Shown: positions 38,517-47,276 of the stretch, piece by piece
Position numbering within the stretch: position 1 is the stretch's first letter
Layout of the letters: each line of letters opens with the position of its first letter
Assembly: GCA_048939765.1 (NCBI GenBank)
Contig: JBHLPF010000009.1
Location: forward strand, 1,716 to 65,715
From: Promethearchaeota archaeon
Lineage (GTDB): Archaea; Asgardarchaeota; Thorarchaeia; Thorarchaeales; Thorarchaeaceae
Direction: 5' to 3'
DNA: 64,000 bases
Position numbers and translations under genes: made by a program
Notes under the pieces: model-generated
What the model was told of the DNA's origin: nothing
What the model saw: only the letters and a program-made list of their open reading frames with translations
The model's database searches: none

Positions 38517-39518
38517 TTGACAGAGCTTGAGGATATCATACAAATCTTGAATGAATTCGAGGGTATCTCTCGCAAGTATGTCCTGCCCGCCATAATAGGG
38601 AAACTCAGATCTGCATCGTTCAATGGAACACAAGAGCATGGACTTGGTGAGGACTCTGCTGCGATTAGTACCAGCAGCGATGATGTCGTTCTTCTAACCA
38701 CAGATGCAATTGTAGAGGAGTTATGTCTGCACCACCCCCATGCGGCGGGCTTTAATGCAGTCTTGGCAACTGTGATGGACATCTATGCGGCTGGAGGTAC
38801 TCCAACATCCTTTGCAGTTGCTCTTTCGTACTCGGATGATAAGATAGGCGAGCAGCTACTAGAGGGCTTAATTGATGGCTCTCAGTCATTTAGAGTTCCC
38901 ATCGTACGAGGGCACACGAGTCCACAATCACGTCTGACTTATGTTGTTGGATCTGCCACTGGAACTGTTCGCAAGGAGCATCTTCTGACCGCAGGAGGAG
39001 CGGAATCCGGGGATGCTCTAGTCCTCCTCTTTGATAAGGTTGGGCAAAGAGGAGCAAGCTACAGACTTGGTTGGGACTCGGTGACTGGACACAGTTCCGA
39101 GTATGTCGTGAAGAGATTAACAGTGATGAACGAGCTGGCAGGCGAAAACCTGCTAAATGCCTCAAAAGACATATCCGTCGCTGGACTAGTAGGTACTGCA
39201 GGAATGATGCTAGAGTACTCAGGAAAGGGCGGCATCATTGATATTGATGCTGTAGATATGACACGCCCTCAAAGCATAGGACTGACTGACTGGATTCGTA
39301 TGTACATATCGCTAGGGTTTCTAGTAGCTGCGTCAGAATCGAATCTGAAACGTATCGTGAAGATTGCAGAAGCACACGATATGACGGCTACCAAGATTGG
39401 AAGTGTTGACGATAGCACATCGCTTCGGTTGCGACTCGCCTCTGAAGTGCGAATTATGTTTGACTATTCCAAGGGTCCCCTGTTGATTCCAAAGGTCGGC
39501 ACCAATGATATCTCCTAG
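38517..39518 (+). CDS. AIR synthase (PurM-fold) related protein
   Basis: GEDSAAI, D.YA.GG.P, GGHT-like RGHT, KDIS.AG..GT. Confidence 0.85.
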   Translation: MTELEDIIQILNEFEGISRKYVLPAIIGKLRSASFNGTQEHGLGEDSAAISTSSDDVVLLTTDAIVEELCLHHPHAAGFNAVLATVMDIYAAGGTPTSFAVALSYSDDKIGEQLLEGLIDGSQSFRVPIVRGHTSPQSRLTYVVGSATGTVRKEHLLTAGGAESGDALVLLFDKVGQRGASYRLGWDSVTGHSSEYVVKRLTVMNELAGENLLNASKDISVAGLVGTAGMMLEYSGKGGIIDIDAVDMTRPQSIGLTDWIRMYISLGFLVAASESNLKRIVKIAEAHDMTATKIGSVDDSTSLRLRLASEVRIMFDYSKGPLLIPKVGTNDIS

Positions 39519-39561: not shown

Positions 39562-39789
39562 GTGAGGAACTTGTCGACAACAAAGAAGACCTGCAGTATT
39601 GCAGGCTGCAATAAACCCTACAAGAGGTCCTTTGCCACAGTACGGATAACCGAGAGTATAGCCAAGTCCGGTCTGAGGGTGAAGGATGCTCGGTCGCGCA
39701 AGACTTACCTCTGCTCAGATCATTGGAAGCAGGTAAAGAAAGCCTTCAAGAAGGATACAAAACCTGAGCGGATGCGATGGGGTCACTAA
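39562..39789 (+). CDS. Small basic putative Zn-binding protein
   Basis: CSIAGC...YLCSDH; Lys/Arg-rich. Confidence 0.7.
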   Translation: MRNLSTTKKTCSIAGCNKPYKRSFATVRITESIAKSGLRVKDARSRKTYLCSDHWKQVKKAFKKDTKPERMRWGH

Positions 39790-39839: not shown

Positions 39840-40199
39840 ATGAGCGCCGAAGAGGATGCTTTCTCAAGACTAAGTCCCAGCTGGAAGTTGTGGCTTGAGT
39901 ACAAGGGTGAATATGTATTTGGTCCGGGAGCCTATGCTATTCTGAAGAGCATTCAGGAGAAGGGAACCATAACCGCCGGAGCGAAGGCCCTAGGTATGTC
40001 ATATCGCTATGCATGGGGTGTAGTGAGAAAGATTGAGCAGACACTTGGAGTGAAGCTCTTGGAAACCTTCAAAGGAGGTACTGAGGGCGGCGGAGGCGCA
40101 AGAATAACTGATTTTGGGACCAAGCTAATGGCGCTTTTTGCAAGTGTTCAAGAGAGTTTTGAGCAAGTGAGTAGTGAAGAAGACCGTCGTCGTTCATGA
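39840..40199 (+). CDS. modE: ModE-family winged-helix regulator
   Basis: GTITAGAKALGMSYRYAWG, GG..GGGA.IT.FG. Confidence 0.88.
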   Translation: MSAEEDAFSRLSPSWKLWLEYKGEYVFGPGAYAILKSIQEKGTITAGAKALGMSYRYAWGVVRKIEQTLGVKLLETFKGGTEGGGGARITDFGTKLMALFASVQESFEQVSSEEDRRRS

Positions 40200-41255
40200 G
40201 AATCTAAGGACAATAGCCTTGTTTGGACAGTGGCTTTTGCAATCCAGGCACAATATACAGTCCGCTGAGTGCATATGCTGGTACGGGAACCTACGTATTC
40301 TGATGTTCATTGGGCATACTACTTCACAGACGTTGCATGTGTCAGGAGTACATCGTGCTGGATTCCTTCCGATACTGAACAATGCCGCCCTTGAGAATAC
40401 ACCGTAGAGCCAACCAGCGGGACAAATCCATCTACAGAACCACCTCGGTACCCAGAAGCTGACAATGACGACTAAGGCGACAAATGCAAACTGGACCAAG
40501 AACCATCCCCATTGTGTCACATACCAGAGTGTTTCAAGACTTGTTGGCCAGCTCTGATGCGTGAACTCTATGAAAATTATGTATGCTGGATTCACTGGAT
40601 TAAACGCATCACTTGCAAAGACGCCTAGAATATCCACCAATGCCTCTTCATTCCCAAGAACCGTGCTGATTCCAACCCAAGCAGCCAAGAAACCTACGAT
40701 GACAAAGATGTACATCTTTATTCGACGGAGTTCTCTCTCAGTTCCGGGTGCTGGACGCACTTTGTTTCTATTTGGTAAAGATGCAAAGTCCTGAATGGTC
40801 CCTATAGGGCAGATCCATCCACATGCAGATCGTCCTAGAACGGTCAATACGATTATCATTGCACCAAGCGTGAAGAATGGGAAGAATCCGGTAGTCAATT
40901 CCAGCTGGAGTGTGTCAAAGCTACCTGCTAGAACAGAAAATGCGCCTTCTAATGGAGAAAGAATCGGAATAGCGGGCAAAATGTCACGAAAACCTTGCCA
41001 GAAGGCTATGACTTGGTCTCCACCAAACCATGCCGCAAAAAGGTAGACGTTGATTCCTATGAAGAATAGAATCTGTACAACTCTTCTCAGCATTCTCGTG
41101 TTAAGAATAAGACCCAGAGGATTCTTCAGACTGACTCTTGGAAGCCTATCGATCTCATGTTGTTCTTCAGTTGTTTCCTCCTCAGCAATCTCATCCAGCT
41201 CGATCTGCTCATCGTCGTCAGGCATGTCATCAGTCCTTTCGGAATCCTCCGCCAT
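40194..41255 (-). CDS. Membrane 4Fe-4S binding protein (NapH/MauN/NosR-like)
   Basis: GRSACGWICP.G, RWFCRWICPAG, C..C..VCPM, CILCLDC...CP. Confidence 0.88.
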   Translation of the reverse strand: MAEDSERTDDMPDDDEQIELDEIAEEETTEEQHEIDRLPRVSLKNPLGLILNTRMLRRVVQILFFIGINVYLFAAWFGGDQVIAFWQGFRDILPAIPILSPLEGAFSVLAGSFDTLQLELTTGFFPFFTLGAMIIVLTVLGRSACGWICPIGTIQDFASLPNRNKVRPAPGTERELRRIKMYIFVIVGFLAAWVGISTVLGNEEALVDILGVFASDAFNPVNPAYIIFIEFTHQSWPTSLETLWYVTQWGWFLVQFAFVALVVIVSFWVPRWFCRWICPAGWLYGVFSRAALFSIGRNPARCTPDTCNVCEVVCPMNIRIRRFPYQHMHSADCILCLDCKSHCPNKAIVLRFS

Positions 41256-41752: not shown

Positions 41753-41854
41753 GTTTCTTTGTTCAGCAATCTACCCAATAAACGGCCCGCTCGATTGTGA
41801 GTGTCACCGAAGGCTTTAAGCTGTTATGAACATCATGAACGTGGCTGCCATACT

Positions 41855-43258
41855 ATGAAGAAAATGGTTCCAATCCACATTGGGCTTGTAGGTCATATAG
41901 ATCATGGAAAGACCGAGCTCGCACGGGCACTCAGTGAGAAGGTGTCAACAGCTGGTCTTGACAAGCATCCACAAGCCAAAGAGAGGGGCATCACAATAGA
42001 CCTCGGGTTCACTATGTTCACCTTAGGTGATTTCCTAGTTACACTTGTTGACGCGCCAGGGCATGCTGATCTCATTAGAAGTGTTGTAGCTAGTGCGGCC
42101 ATTATCGATGCCGCCATTTTGGTGGTTGCTGCTGACGAAGGCGCACAGATACAGACTGGAGAGCATATTGTTGTGCTCAAGTCGATGGGAATTGAGAATA
42201 TACTTGTAGCAATCACAAAGACTGACACAGTTGATGCAATTCGGTTAGATGCTGTGGTACGGCAGATGAAGGACATCATCGCGGGTGCTCAAATCTCTAA
42301 TGTCGACTATGTAACGGTTTCCTCGAAAACTGGTGAAGGTTTGGACAAGCTAAGGGACATTCTACTCAACAGGCTTGAACCCCAGAAGCGACAAAAGGAT
42401 GGGCCCTTTCTGATGCCTATCGACCACGCATTCACTGTGAAGGGCCATGGCACAGTAGTCACAGGTACAGTACTACGTGGTACTCTGAGCGCCGGTGAAA
42501 CAGTCCAGCTATCACCCCAGGGCAATTCCTCACGAGTCAGGTCTATACAGACATTTGGTGAAGAGAGGACCGAAGCCAGCGCGGGAGATCGCGTGGGGCT
42601 GAATGTTCCAGACATTGACCATAGGGTAGTTAAACGCGGCAATTATCTTGCGAAACCTAGCACAATGCATCATTCTAGGCATATCATTGTGAGCTTGGGG
42701 AGAAATGGACTCTACAAGGGTAGGGTCTCAAAGGGGTTGATCCTAAGTGCTACCGTGGGCATGCCAACAGTGACAGCCGAGCTGATTCCGCTTCTAGGTG
42801 ACACCAATATGATGCTGGAGGAGACAACTGAGTTGTCATTCAAGGCAGCCCTCGTGTTTCAGGAGGACATTCCAGTAGAGATTGGGACTCGAGTTCTCTT
42901 GATGCGCACGGATCTGCCTCCCACGCATATGCGCATCATGGGTTCTGGCGAGGTGATCGAGATTCCTGAGAATCTTGTTCTGAAGCGGAGCATTCGTAGA
43001 ACTGGTCATGTGAGCAGGATTCGCGAAGACGATGTTCTAGTGGAGGGACTGGCATCAAGCAAAGAGATTGCAGAGTCATTATCTGGTTTACATGTACAAA
43101 CACCAAGAGGAATCAAGGGAACCCTTAAGCAGCCTTTTGGAACACGAGGTGTTGTATCAGTCAAGTTTGAGAGTCCCGTTGAGGACTCAGAAGAGGTAAT
43201 CTATGAACGATTCGTTGAGGAGGAGATGGCCTTTGGATATAGACGAAAAGTTGGCTGA
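41855..43258 (+). CDS. selB: Selenocysteine-specific elongation factor SelB
   Basis: GHIDHGKT, ERGITIDLGF, DAPGH, TKTD; C-terminal extra domain; Sec cluster context. Confidence 0.92.
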   Translation: MKKMVPIHIGLVGHIDHGKTELARALSEKVSTAGLDKHPQAKERGITIDLGFTMFTLGDFLVTLVDAPGHADLIRSVVASAAIIDAAILVVAADEGAQIQTGEHIVVLKSMGIENILVAITKTDTVDAIRLDAVVRQMKDIIAGAQISNVDYVTVSSKTGEGLDKLRDILLNRLEPQKRQKDGPFLMPIDHAFTVKGHGTVVTGTVLRGTLSAGETVQLSPQGNSSRVRSIQTFGEERTEASAGDRVGLNVPDIDHRVVKRGNYLAKPSTMHHSRHIIVSLGRNGLYKGRVSKGLILSATVGMPTVTAELIPLLGDTNMMLEETTELSFKAALVFQEDIPVEIGTRVLLMRTDLPPTHMRIMGSGEVIEIPENLVLKRSIRRTGHVSRIREDDVLVEGLASSKEIAESLSGLHVQTPRGIKGTLKQPFGTRGVVSVKFESPVEDSEEVIYERFVEEEMAFGYRRKVG

Positions 43259-44543
43259 GCTCATTCCAAAAAGAATGGCCGAGCGAGGTCGCATCACTAT
43301 GGACTCGCTTCTTGCTCCAATCAAAGACATTTTGAACAGACGACGGTTTCCTGAGAAATCTCTAGCAGATGACCAAATCGAGCTGATGTTTCGTCTATTA
43401 TCTTCCATGGATACAGACAAAGACCCTGCCGCAGCACGAGTAGGGGAACGAGAGGCGCGAGTAGCATCACCATATATTTCGCGGCTTGCAGCTGGATTCA
43501 ATCATGGCATTGGACGTGGTGGCCGCGTCACAGCACCACAGCCCAAGGCTCCTGGTGCCTCCTTAATGCAGCAGCTTGCAAACACAGTGGCCCTTGATGC
43601 GATGAAGAGCCTTGGCCTTCCAAATGTGAGAGCTGGAATTGTGCTGCCTTTAGCCACCGGCATGACCATTGGTCTCGTCTTGAGCGCTCTTAGAAGCGAA
43701 TACTCCTTTGATACAGTATTGCATCCCCGGTTAGACCATTCGTCACCAATAAAAGGCGTTGCTTTGACTGGCCTTGACATGGTGACCACCCCAACTGTCT
43801 TGGAGGGAGATGCAGTACGTGCTGACTTGACCAAGCTAGAAGAAGAGGTATCAAAGAGGAAATCGTGTGCAATTCTTGCGACTACGACATTCTTTCCACC
43901 GAGGGAGTCAGATCCAGTGAAGGATCTATCTCGACTCTGTAGCGATGAAGACATTCCACTTGTCATCAACAATGCATATGGGGTTCAGTCCGAGGCAGTC
44001 ATGGCTCGTCTGCAATCCGCCATTGATGCTGGACGAGTAGATGCAATAGTACAGAGTAGCGACAAGAACTTCCTGTCGCCGGTCGGTGCATCAATCCTAG
44101 TATCACCGAGGGAGGAAACGGTAGAGAAAGCTGCTGAGAGCTACGCAGGTAGGGCTTCTGCAGCTCCTGTGGCTCAGACATTGGCAGCTCTTCTTGCACT
44201 TGGTCTTGAGAGATACCGGACTCTGAGAGAGGAGCAGCTTAAGAACAAGCACCTTCTTGATGCAAAGCTAGCCGAGATTGCTGGGTCCATTGGCCAACGT
44301 GTCCTCTCAGTTGAGAATCCAGTCGCTTCAGCAATGACACTGGACGGTCTGGACGCCAAAGATCTTGGTGGCAGGCTCTATAATCTCCGAGTTACTGGCC
44401 CTAGGGCTATTCCTAAAGGTGCATTCGGATCATGTATAGACAACTATCCACACAGTTATCTTGTCATGAATGCAGCCATAGGATCTTCTAGGAGTGACAT
44501 AGAGAATGCTACTACGAAACTCTTTAAGGAGGTCAGTGGCTAG
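43233..44543 (+). CDS. spcS: O-phosphoseryl-tRNA(Sec) selenium transferase (SepSecS)
   Basis: SMDTDK, VGEREAR, HGIGR.G....QPKAPG, INNAYG, QSSDKNFL.PVG; likely TTG start after a GAGGAG Shine-Dalgarno (ORF from 43203). Confidence 0.95.
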   Translation: MDIDEKLAELIPKRMAERGRITMDSLLAPIKDILNRRRFPEKSLADDQIELMFRLLSSMDTDKDPAAARVGEREARVASPYISRLAAGFNHGIGRGGRVTAPQPKAPGASLMQQLANTVALDAMKSLGLPNVRAGIVLPLATGMTIGLVLSALRSEYSFDTVLHPRLDHSSPIKGVALTGLDMVTTPTVLEGDAVRADLTKLEEEVSKRKSCAILATTTFFPPRESDPVKDLSRLCSDEDIPLVINNAYGVQSEAVMARLQSAIDAGRVDAIVQSSDKNFLSPVGASILVSPREETVEKAAESYAGRASAAPVAQTLAALLALGLERYRTLREEQLKNKHLLDAKLAEIAGSIGQRVLSVENPVASAMTLDGLDAKDLGGRLYNLRVTGPRAIPKGAFGSCIDNYPHSYLVMNAAIGSSRSDIENATTKLFKEVSG

Positions 44544-44572
44544 CTCATAGCTGGCCTGAGGGAGGGCTAGCC

Positions 44573-45217
44573 TTGGAAGAAATCGGCGACAAGATCGAGA
44601 TTAGCAAGACCATCAGCTACGATATGCCAGATTCATCAGTTGTGTTTCGACTTGCTTGGTATGTAGTTGCATCGAAGCCTGGCGTTCTCCTGAACGAATA
44701 CAGCGAGGCTGAAAGCCAGATATACAAGGGAAAGGCCATCTTCTCATCGAAAGAAGCCAATGCCGACGTGCGCATCTGGGTTGAAGAAGCACAGAGATCG
44801 GTGGAGATAACTGGTTGGGGTACTGAACAAGACCAGCTTGAAGAGTATCTCAATGAAGTTGCTGCATCAGTGGAGTCCTCAGTGGGCAAGTATCAGTCTC
44901 TCTCAGATGAAGAGAAAGGGAAGCTTCGGCGTGCTCTTGTTGCAAAGACATGTTGGGACAAGATTGTTTTCGAGATTCTCAATAAGGCTCCTGCCGGTAC
45001 TGTCTATTTCCAGCTGGCTCACGGTCGGGAGATGATAATCAAGGCTACTGAGGGTGAGGACATACATGCCCTGCCTTTGACTACGTCGGGTTGGCTTACC
45101 AGAATCGAGGGTATGCCTAGGGATGAGGCGCTGCCGAGTAGTATAGCCATGGAACTGGCTAAGAAGAGTGTAGAGTGGAAGAAGGAAACGCAGGACATCA
45201 TTGCTCGCTACATTTGA
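44573..45217 (+). CDS. Hypothetical protein within the Sec cluster
   Basis: 214-aa ORF; GGAGG Shine-Dalgarno-like element; co-oriented between SepSecS and tRNA-Sec. Confidence 0.75.
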   Translation: MEEIGDKIEISKTISYDMPDSSVVFRLAWYVVASKPGVLLNEYSEAESQIYKGKAIFSSKEANADVRIWVEEAQRSVEITGWGTEQDQLEEYLNEVAASVESSVGKYQSLSDEEKGKLRRALVAKTCWDKIVFEILNKAPAGTVYFQLAHGREMIIKATEGEDIHALPLTTSGWLTRIEGMPRDEALPSSIAMELAKKSVEWKKETQDIIARYI

Positions 45218-45265: not shown

Positions 45266-45356
45266 GGCCTCCTACAGGGTCGGTGGTCCGGCTCCATGGG
45301 CTTCAAACCCATGATCGTGCAAGCGATGAGAGTTCGATTCTCTTTGGAGGCCGCCA
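45266..45356 (+). tRNA. selC: tRNA-Sec (anticodon UCA at 45303-45305), 9/4 fold, CCA encoded
   Basis: Acceptor GGCCTCCTA/TTGGAGGCC; D stem GGGTCGG-TGGT-CCGGCTC; anticodon arm CATGGG-CTTCAAA-CCCATG; variable arm ATCGT-GCAA-GCGAT; T arm AGAG-TTCGATT-CTCT; G73 then CCA. Confidence 0.95.
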
Positions 45357-45481: not shown

Positions 45482-46249
45482 TCAACTATCCCTTGCTCTC
45501 GATTCTAGCTCCTTCAATATGTTTTCAAGCCGTTGTTCAGTTTCTAGTGGAGAGAGACCCTGCTTCTTTGCCAGTGTAAGAAGCCTTCTTCTCTCCCTGA
45601 AGACAAATGGATTCTTCCTCATAGATGGATTCTCGTCCAGGAACTGCTTCACAACCTGCCTTGTGATGGCATCCAACAGGTCACTCATCGACTTGTGGGG
45701 TGAACGAGTCACACTAGAGAAGGCACCAAGATTGTCCAATCTCTCAACTATCTCTCGTCCGGATTCGTTAGGGTCGTCCTCCATGAGGTTGTAAGTCGCA
45801 ATTGGCTTATCCCAGGCATATTTCGAACCAGGGACATCAAACTTCTCGGCTATCTTCTCTATCACACCATCTGGTACAGGCCTCTCTCTTTTCATATTCC
45901 ATTGAATGGCGTCTTCAAGTGGAGTTGAAACGTGAACAACTGCAAAAGCGGTTTTGCTCTGCTCCGCAATTGCAAGGAGTTCATGCCTCATACTTGCATA
46001 GTAATTTGTGTCGTCATGGATTACGGATATGCCCCCTTGAAGTAGTCTGCGCGTGTTTTCAAGAGCCTCCTTTCTAACTTCATGTTCCTTTTCTGGCCTG
46101 AAATCTGAGTAGAACTCCTCATCGCGCCAACGATCAGTGCTTACAATCTCCACCTTGGTTACGTTCATGAGCTGATCCTTGATGGCTTTGGCTAGAGTTG
46201 TTTTTCCAGATGATGGGATTCCGCAAAGTGCGAGTAGGAATCGCTCCAT
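45482..46249 (-). CDS. pstK: L-seryl-tRNA(Sec) kinase PSTK
   Basis: LCGIPSSGKTT, VSTD, DDTNYY.SMR, N..R...VP, YAWD.P; adjacent to tRNA-Sec. Confidence 0.92.
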   Translation of the reverse strand: MERFLLALCGIPSSGKTTLAKAIKDQLMNVTKVEIVSTDRWRDEEFYSDFRPEKEHEVRKEALENTRRLLQGGISVIHDDTNYYASMRHELLAIAEQSKTAFAVVHVSTPLEDAIQWNMKRERPVPDGVIEKIAEKFDVPGSKYAWDKPIATYNLMEDDPNESGREIVERLDNLGAFSSVTRSPHKSMSDLLDAITRQVVKQFLDENPSMRKNPFVFRERRRLLTLAKKQGLSPLETEQRLENILKELESRARDS

Positions 46250-46337: not shown

Positions 46338-47276
46338 CTACGGCTTGATTGTAATCCTCAGGCTGTTCGCCAAGTCCTTGTACCTGTTGCGTACTGTGAC
46401 TTCGGTCACATTTGATGCCTCAGCAATCTCACGCTGAGTTCGTCTATCATCTGTGATAATCCCCGCAATGTAAAGGGCAGCAGCTGCAAGACCACCCGGG
46501 TCCTTGCCAGCTGTGATTCCCTGCTCTCGAGCATCGTTGATGATGCCCATCGCAGTCTGAACGGTCTTGCCGTCGAGTTGCAGGTCTGCAGAAATTCTTG
46601 GCATCAGATCATTGGCTGACGGTATTGGTACTTTGACATCAACATTCCGAAGTATGAGTCGAACGCACTGGCCTAATTCCTTCCTATTCACTCTGGCCTC
46701 AGTCACAATCTCATCAAGCTGCCTTGGAATCTTGTGAATTCGACAGGACAGATAGATGGTAGCAGCGACCATGCCCTCAATACTTCTTCCTCTGACAAGC
46801 CTCCTCGCGAGAGCCTTCCTGTAAATCAGTGCAGAGGTTTCTTTGGTTTCGTGAGGCACGCCGAGCTGTGATGTCAATCTGTCCATCTCACTCATAGCGA
46901 TGCTTAGATTTCTGTGCTGAGAGCTATGAACAAGCGTCCTGATCTGCCACTTCCTCATACGATAGATTGCTGCACGGGAACTAGCAGCTATGGTTCTACC
47001 ATTCGCGTCTCTATCACTCCACCCGATTGTTGTGGCCAGACCCTTATCTGCCATTGTCAGAGTCATTGGTGAGCCGGTCCTGGCTCTGGCGTCTCTCTCT
47101 TCAGCAGTAAATGCTCTCCATTCAGGGCCTGAGTCAATATGTCTCTCGTTGATGACGCATCCACATGATGTACAGATGCTCTCTCCTCGAGTCAAGTCTT
47201 CATAGAAGTCGTTACCCCCGCAGATAGAACAGACTGCGATACCTTTCTGCTTCATGGGGCGGATTGGTCTTGCCAT
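46338..47276 (-). CDS. tfb: Transcription initiation factor IIB (copy 2)
   Basis: CSICG..CTSCG, EWRAF, RGRSIE, EVTVRNRYK. Confidence 0.96.
   Translation of the reverse strand: MARPIRPMKQKGIAVCSICGGNDFYEDLTRGESICTSCGCVINERHIDSGPEWRAFTAEERDARARTGSPMTLTMADKGLATTIGWSDRDANGRTIAASSRAAIYRMRKWQIRTLVHSSQHRNLSIAMSEMDRLTSQLGVPHETKETSALIYRKALARRLVRGRSIEGMVAATIYLSCRIHKIPRQLDEIVTEARVNRKELGQCVRLILRNVDVKVPIPSANDLMPRISADLQLDGKTVQTAMGIINDAREQGITAGKDPGGLAAAALYIAGIITDDRRTQREIAEASNVTEVTVRNRYKDLANSLRITIKP

Follow-up and report, generated by a model that had tools for sequence, protein, structure and literature searches.

Sel_Asgard, encoded among selenocysteine genes in Asgard archaea, is retained after loss of those genes and may be a protein-protein adaptor

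Archaea, and Asgard archaea especially, raise the question of how ribosomes couple a SECIS element in the 3′-UTR to UGA recoding in the absence of SBP2. Lokiarchaeota lack SBP2, and the SECIS binder there is unknown (Mariotti et al. 2016, PMC4989117). An obvious candidate for this niche has already been flagged: Huang et al. (2024, ISME J, PMC11227280) reported an Asgard-exclusive hypothetical protein (e.g. MBD3157761.1) that is often encoded near secS, efSec and pstk, and suggested that it might be associated with the selenocysteine (Sec) pathway. This unnamed protein is probably identical to the family curated at NCBI as NF045535, 'Sel_Asgard, putative selenocysteine system protein'. Both the family and the idea of a Sec role were therefore in the record before the present analysis. 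In a different context, a study whose main text makes no mention of selenocysteine (Makarova et al. 2024, mBio, PMC10936438) reported multidomain proteins of Asgard archaea in which Vps28-C occurs together with adaptin-appendage, Ig and HTH/PCI domains; a contact of Vps28-C with ESCRT-II was proposed there. New here are a predicted domain assignment for Sel_Asgard, an alpha/beta domain followed by a Vps28-C-like bundle, and a probable homology to a family of large Lokiarchaeal paralogs, which we regard as a modest lead.

We analysed a 64,000-nucleotide stretch of Thorarchaeal DNA (the window; GenBank assembly GCA_048939765.1, contig JBHLPF010000009.1), which contains a Sel_Asgard gene within a cluster of Sec genes (Table 1). 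The original prediction, made from the letters of the DNA, described a 214-aa same-strand ORF 29 nt after SepSecS and 48 nt before tRNA-Sec, and these coordinates were confirmed. SelB overlaps SepSecS, and PSTK and the TFB-like gene are convergent on the minus strand. The position of the TTG start codon is common to homologs, several of which use ATG there. Going solely by spacing, the ORF would be co-transcribed with SelB and SepSecS; a promoter and terminator scan of the locus gave no signal exceeding shuffled expectation.

Table 1. Features of the Sel_Asgard locus, in window coordinates
Feature	Coordinates	Strand	Basis or remark
AIR-synthase-like gene	38517..39518	+	PF00586 + PF02769; TIGR03267 234 bits, below its cut-off
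SelB / EFSec, archaeal	41801..43258	+	TIGR00475 285 bits; aSelB_III domain present
SepSecS	43203..44543	+	PF05889 E 3.9e-110; TIGR03531 437 bits
GGGAGGG, Shine-Dalgarno-like	44560..44566	+	read from sequence; 6 nt before TTG
Sel_Asgard family protein gene	44573..45217	+	214 aa, TTG start; NF045535 match; AF2 model
N-terminal alpha/beta domain	44594..44896	+	residues 8-108, strand-helix-four strands-long helix (model)
C-terminal four-helix bundle, Vps28-C-like	44906..45205	+	residues 112-211 (model); Foldseek, hhalign
tRNA-Sec (UCA)	45266..45356	+	ARAGORN; RF01852 59.9 bits
PSTK (KTI12 family)	45482..46249	-	PF08433 E 2.4e-37; best NCBIfam TIGR03574 126 bits, below its cut-off
TFB-like gene	46338..47276	-	conserved flank; tblastn synteny table

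To place the gene in context, 63 Thorarchaeal loci with flanks of up to 10 kb were compared, 62 from the family of the window (f1) and one (L120) from its sister family f2; the alignment of closer homologs (A2) drew only Thorarchaeota loci and the f2 locus. Throughout, f denotes Asgard families, with f9 being Lokiarchaeia-type, G denotes genomes and L denotes loci. The ORF is intact in 63/63 of the Thorarchaeal orthologs, with dN/dS of 0.03–0.2, and it is a real gene, far beyond a chance ORF.

The encoded protein matches NF045535 with 230.6 bits (E 1.4e-68, cut-off 132), and the alignment is full-length, placing residues 19–210 on profile positions 3–194 of 195. It differs in no respect from other members of the family and is an ordinary one; some homologs already carry the Sel_Asgard name in their NCBI records. 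The description of the ORF as an unknown protein is accordingly superseded, the family being both curated and flagged in print (PMC11227280), and the remark that it has no recognised motif stands for Pfam (no matches at E ≤ 10) and falls for NCBIfam. A Pfam search with 28 family members at E ≤ 10 returned nothing meaningful, and no L7Ae domain among the matches. Sel_Asgard is represented by 21 of 1.84e9 cluster representatives (E ≤ 1e-3) and has matches in 281 of 400 Asgard genomes and in 0 of 14 control genomes, Sec-positive M. jannaschii included. By these profile searches, the family is tiny and Asgard-only.

The position of the gene beside Sec genes is conserved well beyond the window. Approximately 50 of the 63 Thorarchaeal loci share the order AIRS-like ... 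SelB-SepSecS-ORF-tRNA-Sec, with PSTK and TFB on the opposite strand. In f9 genomes, the gene lies directly 3′ of SepSecS in every readable pair, as seen in two phylum-wide scans, and in f13, f21 and f26 it likewise comes straight after SepSecS, while in f7 it is divergent from an adjoining SelB. The gap from SepSecS to the gene is 29–270 nt, on the same strand, in at least five Asgard families. Tallied by family, eight have both the gene and SepSecS, one has SepSecS only, and five have the gene only. The gene is genuinely linked to sel genes, and the linkage is conserved across deep divergences.

The gene is also kept where the Sec genes are gone. At least five independent Thorarchaeal lineages have deleted the Sec genes around the gene and kept the gene itself. 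Specifically, SelB, SepSecS, tRNA-Sec and PSTK have been lost in G010/G011, which belong to the window's own genus, in G020, G363, G373 and G348, and at locus L073, and in each case the ORF is intact between the same flanks. Short fragments of SelB, SepSecS or PSTK remain in L093 and L073. In L069, the deletion scar joins the region upstream of SelB to the final ~20 SepSecS codons, preserving the promoter and the ribosome-binding site; L067 is collinear with this deletion at 88% identity, so the loss of the Sec genes is older than the split of the two. A search of the Sec-deleted Thorarchaeal genomes found no SepSecS anywhere in the genome and no intact tRNA-Sec, with sub-threshold tRNA-Sec remnants beside the ORF in G020 and G373 (RF01852 also matches ordinary tRNAs at 30–40 bits, and its matches were counted only near or above 47 bits or when adjacent to the locus). 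Every genome with SepSecS also has a TGA-containing SelD. In Sec-less carriers, the best SelD score does not exceed 95 bits (cut-off 125), and the idea that these carriers use selenium in some other way was rejected because they have no true SelD.

Furthermore, five other families (f2, f3, f12 with ~19 genomes, f15 and f31) have full-length homologs and no SepSecS or SelD, and no tRNA-Sec except for one borderline match at a contig end in G329. The homologs in these families have all the invariant residues, and those of f12 and f3 have neighbouring genes unrelated to Sec. The converse is also seen. Two 100%-complete genomes of the Sec-positive family f32 have no homolog, even in a permissive HMM scan beside SepSecS, and f23 and f24 have only relatives of the C-half, of 130–144 aa, encoded apart from SelB-SepSecS (a different contig in G160; the same contig, 10 kb off, in G161); all compared genomes are MAGs, and gene absences carry a risk of incompleteness.

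In pairwise dN/dS estimates for the gene (Nei-Gojobori), the Sec-less pair L067/L069 gives 0.097 at dS 0.28, compared with 0.05–0.10 for Sec-positive pairs of similar divergence, and Sec-less L073 gives 0.21–0.24 against its Sec-positive sisters, compared with 0.19 among those sisters. On a maximum-likelihood tree, the Sec state needs nine changes, and supported branches force at least six of them; the Sec-less Thorarchaeal tips are not long-branched. A search for residues that separate Sec-positive from Sec-negative members found none. Co-occurrence of the gene with the Sec trait, in all users of Sec and in no others, thus fails both ways, through the Sec-less carriers and through f32. Judging from these genome comparisons, the core function of Sel_Asgard is probably independent of both selenocysteine and selenium, and Sec decoding is probably possible without the gene. 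A selenoprotein form of the protein in G030 was considered and rejected, the in-frame TGA being a true stop codon.

The structure of the ORF product was predicted by AlphaFold2 from a 28-sequence alignment, with a pLDDT of 93.9 and a pTM of 0.90. The model agrees with the original prediction of an alpha/beta N-half and a helical C-half, and gives the domain boundaries listed in Table 1. D129, R152 and E153 are invariant and F25, Y145, W202 and K203 near-invariant, in Sec-positive and Sec-negative members alike. The family is mostly acidic, which argues against RNA binding: of 12 diverse members, 10 have a pI of ~4.8–5.5, and most carry a net charge of −7 to −10. No cysteine is conserved, Cys127 being confined to Thorarchaeota and some members being free of cysteine, which makes persulfide- or selenide-carrier chemistry implausible.

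A sequence-profile search of the PDB at E ≤ 10 returned noise only (TetR, prefoldin). In structural comparisons with Foldseek, the PDB gave no match at E ≤ 1e-3 and no L7Ae-type fold, and BFVD gave nothing significant. The helical half nevertheless aligns with the Vps28 C-terminal domain (CTD; 2j9w_A) over 99 columns, with a probability of 1.00, a TMt of 0.72, an rmsd of 3.1 Å and an E-value of 0.08. Four-helix bundles are common folds. The alpha/beta half has local TBP-like matches, namely PGM domain 4, AdoMetDC, the RnlA NRD and the beta2-appendage; the match of the ORF model to the beta2-appendage has an E-value of 0.22, and the ORF has no beta-sandwich. The Foldseek comparison that had been proposed as a check thus returned resemblances to the Vps28 CTD and to TBP-like domains, and neither an RNA-binding fold nor any match at E ≤ 1e-3.

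A further comparison runs through an intermediate family. Along its whole length, the NF045535 profile also matches the C-terminal ~200 residues of Lokiarchaeal proteins of ~790 aa (E 1e-9 to 1e-13). These proteins comprise N-terminal Zn ribbons, five winged helices of UFL1/DDRGK1/PCI type, an Ig-like sandwich, and a C-terminus corresponding to Pfam VPS28; PF03997 (VPS28) is on record for many of them, and a search of Sel_Asgard itself with PF03997 gave no match. The region homologous to Sel_Asgard comes after the Ig-like sandwich. With hhalign, the Sel_Asgard alignment (A3) matches the paralog C-terminus with a probability of 98.7% (E 2.1e-16, 206 columns), and the paralog module matches bona fide Asgard Vps28 with 94.9% (E 4.3e-8), on the Vps28 CTD. 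The direct comparison of A3 with Asgard Vps28 gives 31% (E 5e-4, 49 columns), with two conserved Trp residues aligned. These profile comparisons suggest that the C-half is homologous to the Vps28 C-terminal domain, with the Lokiarchaeal paralog as the intermediate.

The structural model of the paralog matches UFL1-DDRGK1 (E 4.6e-12). It also matches, over 235–259 columns, the whole appendages of AP2 alpha (1w80_A, E 3.5e-6) and, more weakly, AP2 beta2 (1e42_A) and gamma-COP (1pzd), with a pLDDT of 30–56 in the alpha/beta part. On this model, the alpha/beta N-half of Sel_Asgard may tentatively be equated with the 'platform' of the adaptin appendage. Relative to the multidomain proteins of the type described by Makarova et al., Sel_Asgard as a whole appears homologous to the last ~210 residues of the Lokiarchaeal PCI proteins, whereas its own invariant D-Y-RE-WK signature is absent from the paralogs. 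Relative to Vps28, the predicted four-helix bundle of the C-half may be superposable on the CTD (2J9W), but Sel_Asgard has the alpha/beta N-half in place of the N-terminal steadiness-box hairpin, is encoded in a Sec operon rather than in an ESCRT cluster, and is not a Vps28 ortholog.

The reading that we prefer is that Sel_Asgard is an Asgard-family adaptor with a Sec-independent core role that is likely also a partner of the Sec machinery in Sec-positive cells; we put its probability at roughly 0.5. Sel_Asgard would be the stand-alone counterpart of the C-terminal module found in the large Lokiarchaeal proteins with PCI/UFL1-like, appendage-like and Vps28-C parts, and would make its contacts through a putative site comprising D129, Y145, R152, E153, W202 and K203. 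In Sec-positive Asgards, the gene would be transcribed together with SelB and SepSecS, and some component of the Sec machinery would probably be among the partners, as the conserved operon position, taken by itself, suggests. Sec decoding could proceed without Sel_Asgard, whose core function would be free of selenium. The function as an adaptor is suggested purely by analogy with its domains, and the invariant D/R/E/K cluster might just as well form a site for catalysis or for a ligand. Selection on the gene is unchanged where it outlives the Sec trait, as it does repeatedly, and there is Sec decoding in the absence of the gene; Sel_Asgard is therefore best treated as a general adaptor and a possible Sec client, and not as 'the archaeal SBP2'.

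The most serious alternative, which we consider unlikely though by no means far-fetched, is that the gene has no Sec function and is a passenger in an old syntenic Asgard block, comprising an AIR-synthase-like gene, a small Zn-ribbon ORF, a Fer4_5 membrane protein gene, the Sel_Asgard gene and TFB, that came to host the Sec genes. The AIRS-like, Fer4_5, orf75 and TFB flanks are conserved in Thorarchaeota, f13, f21 and f24 and survive excision of the Sec genes; the homolog of Sec-less f12 adjoins a Fer4_5 gene, the f2 homolog lies directly upstream of TFB, and the gene and the Sec trait are doubly dissociated. A passenger would not, however, be expected to follow SepSecS directly and on the same strand in at least five deeply diverged Asgard families, as archaeal gene order is otherwise poorly conserved at such divergence, nor to be enriched in Sec-positive families in the way that the family tally records. 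This conservation of the operon across classes could also reflect a Sec-specific role accompanied by a second function in Sec-less lineages.

A more specific version of a Sec partnership is a good deal less probable. Here, the module would have been recruited in the Asgard ancestor as a scaffold that docks SepSecS and/or aSelB onto another machine, winged-helix or ribosome-associated, replacing SBP2/SECp43 in cells whose SECIS elements are eukaryote-like, and a second client would explain its survival in Sec-less lineages. If this were true, a eukaryotic-signature module would have a part in how Sec decoding passed from its archaeal to its eukaryotic form.

Less probable again, to the point of being very doubtful, is the idea put forward in the original prediction, that Sel_Asgard is a dedicated factor of Sec decoding or synthesis, whether it binds SECIS elements as SBP2 does, binds tRNA-Sec or delivers selenium. 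The idea is a natural one: the gene sits between SepSecS and tRNA-Sec, the family is confined to the one archaeal phylum in which SECIS elements are eukaryote-like and SBP2 is absent (PMC4989117, PMC11227280), and the same suspicion is found in the NCBI curation and in Huang et al. (2024, PMC11227280). Its premise, that no archaeal counterpart of SBP2 is known, agrees with both papers. Of the two outcomes of genome comparison that had been named in advance as counting against it, a lack of linkage to sel genes is not seen, the linkage being deep in Thorarchaeota, Lokiarchaeia-type f9, f13, f21 and f26, whereas orthologs are indeed common in Sec-negative genomes, namely in at least five Thorarchaeal lineages and five further families. 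Phylogenetic profiling thus bore out the linkage to sel genes and the enrichment in Sec-positive families, and at the same time placed the gene in Sec-less genomes and found it missing from f32. In particular, the gene stays intact under equal purifying selection after loss of SelB, SepSecS, tRNA-Sec, PSTK and SelD; Sec-positive f32 does without it, and f23 and f24 have only a homologous fragment of the C-half; the mostly acidic protein has no L7Ae or other RNA-binding domain and no conserved cysteine for carriage of selenium; and no residue marks the Sec-positive members. A role in binding SECIS or tRNA-Sec, or in delivering selenium, is accordingly unsupported.

With SBP2 itself, Sel_Asgard has only a hypothesised niche in common, that of an accessory protein linked to Sec where the SECIS elements are of the kink-turn type; unlike SBP2, it is acidic and has no L7Ae domain, it has no sequence or fold similarity to SBP2, and in several lineages it is neither required for the Sec trait nor dependent on it. 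The Sec role implied by the published and curated naming is likewise unsupported by the retention data. That Sel_Asgard is the missing decoding factor is improbable, and the present comparison mainly lowers that expectation.

The remaining alternative, an RnlA-like RNase or RNA-binding toxin/antitoxin-like factor made of a TBP-like alpha/beta domain and a HEPN-type helical domain, is hardly credible and was rejected as an identity, because the HEPN motif Rx4-6H is missing (nothing is conserved 4–6 residues past R152, and H150 is variable), there is no antitoxin-like partner gene or toxin-antitoxin context, and the statistics are marginal (no E ≤ 1e-3, TM 0.27, rmsd ~13 Å), even though E. coli RnlA has its alpha/beta (TBP-like) domain and helical bundle in the same order, its NRD+HEPN region is the best whole-chain Foldseek match (6y2r_B, E 1.9e-3, probability 0.96), and an RNase LS-like phage protein ranks sixth in BFVD.

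Returning to the adaptor reading, the domain assignment yields concrete, testable hypotheses about partners, and through it a protein labelled as part of the selenocysteine system would be linked to the eukaryote-like trafficking modules of Asgard archaea. As a separate observation, a weak Vps28-like match lies elsewhere in the genome from which the window was taken (G000:C21).

The Sec operon scars found in Thorarchaeota are fresh deletions and represent natural experiments of Sec loss. In one of them (locus L069), the 3′ end of SepSecS is joined to the upstream region of SelB, while loci L093 and L073 retain frameshifted fragments of SelB, SepSecS, and PSTK. Decaying tRNA-Sec genes are likewise retained, scoring 46 bits in genome G020 and 37.6 bits in genome G373.

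Deletion of the Sec genes leaves in place an AIR-synthase/SelD-superfamily gene, which adjoins the Sec locus in Thorarchaeia and in Asgard families f13, f21, and f24, and directly follows tRNA-Sec in genome G160. Its top matches, methanogenesis-marker-2 and sll0787-like, are both under the cut-off. SelD of the window's genome is encoded on a different contig from the Sec cluster and contains one in-frame TGA, indicating that SelD is itself a selenoprotein. Across Asgard families, the Sec locus is also accompanied by a Fer4_5 (NapH-like) gene and a 75-aa ORF, and the Fer4_5 gene still adjoins the Sel_Asgard homolog in the Sec-less family f12.

In f23 and f24 genomes, proteins of 130–144 aa are counterparts of just the helical C-half of Sel_Asgard. 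Their genes are separated from SelB-SepSecS: in G160 the two are on different contigs, and in G161 they share a contig but are 10 kb apart.

In the ~790-aa Lokiarchaeal proteins, Vps28-C occurs together with Zn ribbons, a region resembling adaptin/COPI appendages, and five winged helices of the UFL1/DDRGK1-like type; the model also matches the BBSome subunit BBS9 (GAE-platform-helical; E 2.2e-7). In one Lokiarchaeial genome, G032, the Sel_Asgard and SepSecS genes lie ~7 kb from a Vps28-like gene, a proximity that may be coincidental.

Coordinates of Sec operon scars, neighbouring genes, and Sel_Asgard-related genes
Feature	Location	Strand
Sec operon deletion scar	L069 9680-10000	
Sec operon deletion scar	L093 (=L048 8654-9041)	
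Sec operon deletion scars	L073 7899-8545 and 10207-10386	
AIR-synthase/SelD-superfamily gene, conserved Sec-locus neighbour	window 38517-39518	+
Further copies	L055 8262-9218; L127 10695-11642; L129 7099-8037	
SelD	G000:C87:36248-37054, outside window	
Fer4_5 (NapH-like) membrane protein gene	window 40194-41255	-
75-aa ORF	window 39562-39789	+
Locus given alongside Fer4_5/75-aa ORF pair	L038 9419-10528	
130-144-aa Sel_Asgard C-half relatives	L053 7979-8368; L054 7990-8400; L056 6253-6684	
Lokiarchaeal ~790-aa 'PCI domain-containing' protein	L121 3929-6295	-
Same	L122 2447-4816	+
Same	L124 2658-5030	+
Lokiarchaeal 'PCI domain-containing' protein, listed with ~790-aa set	L123 3469-5049	+
Vps28-like gene	G032:C86:50123-50707 (locus L140)
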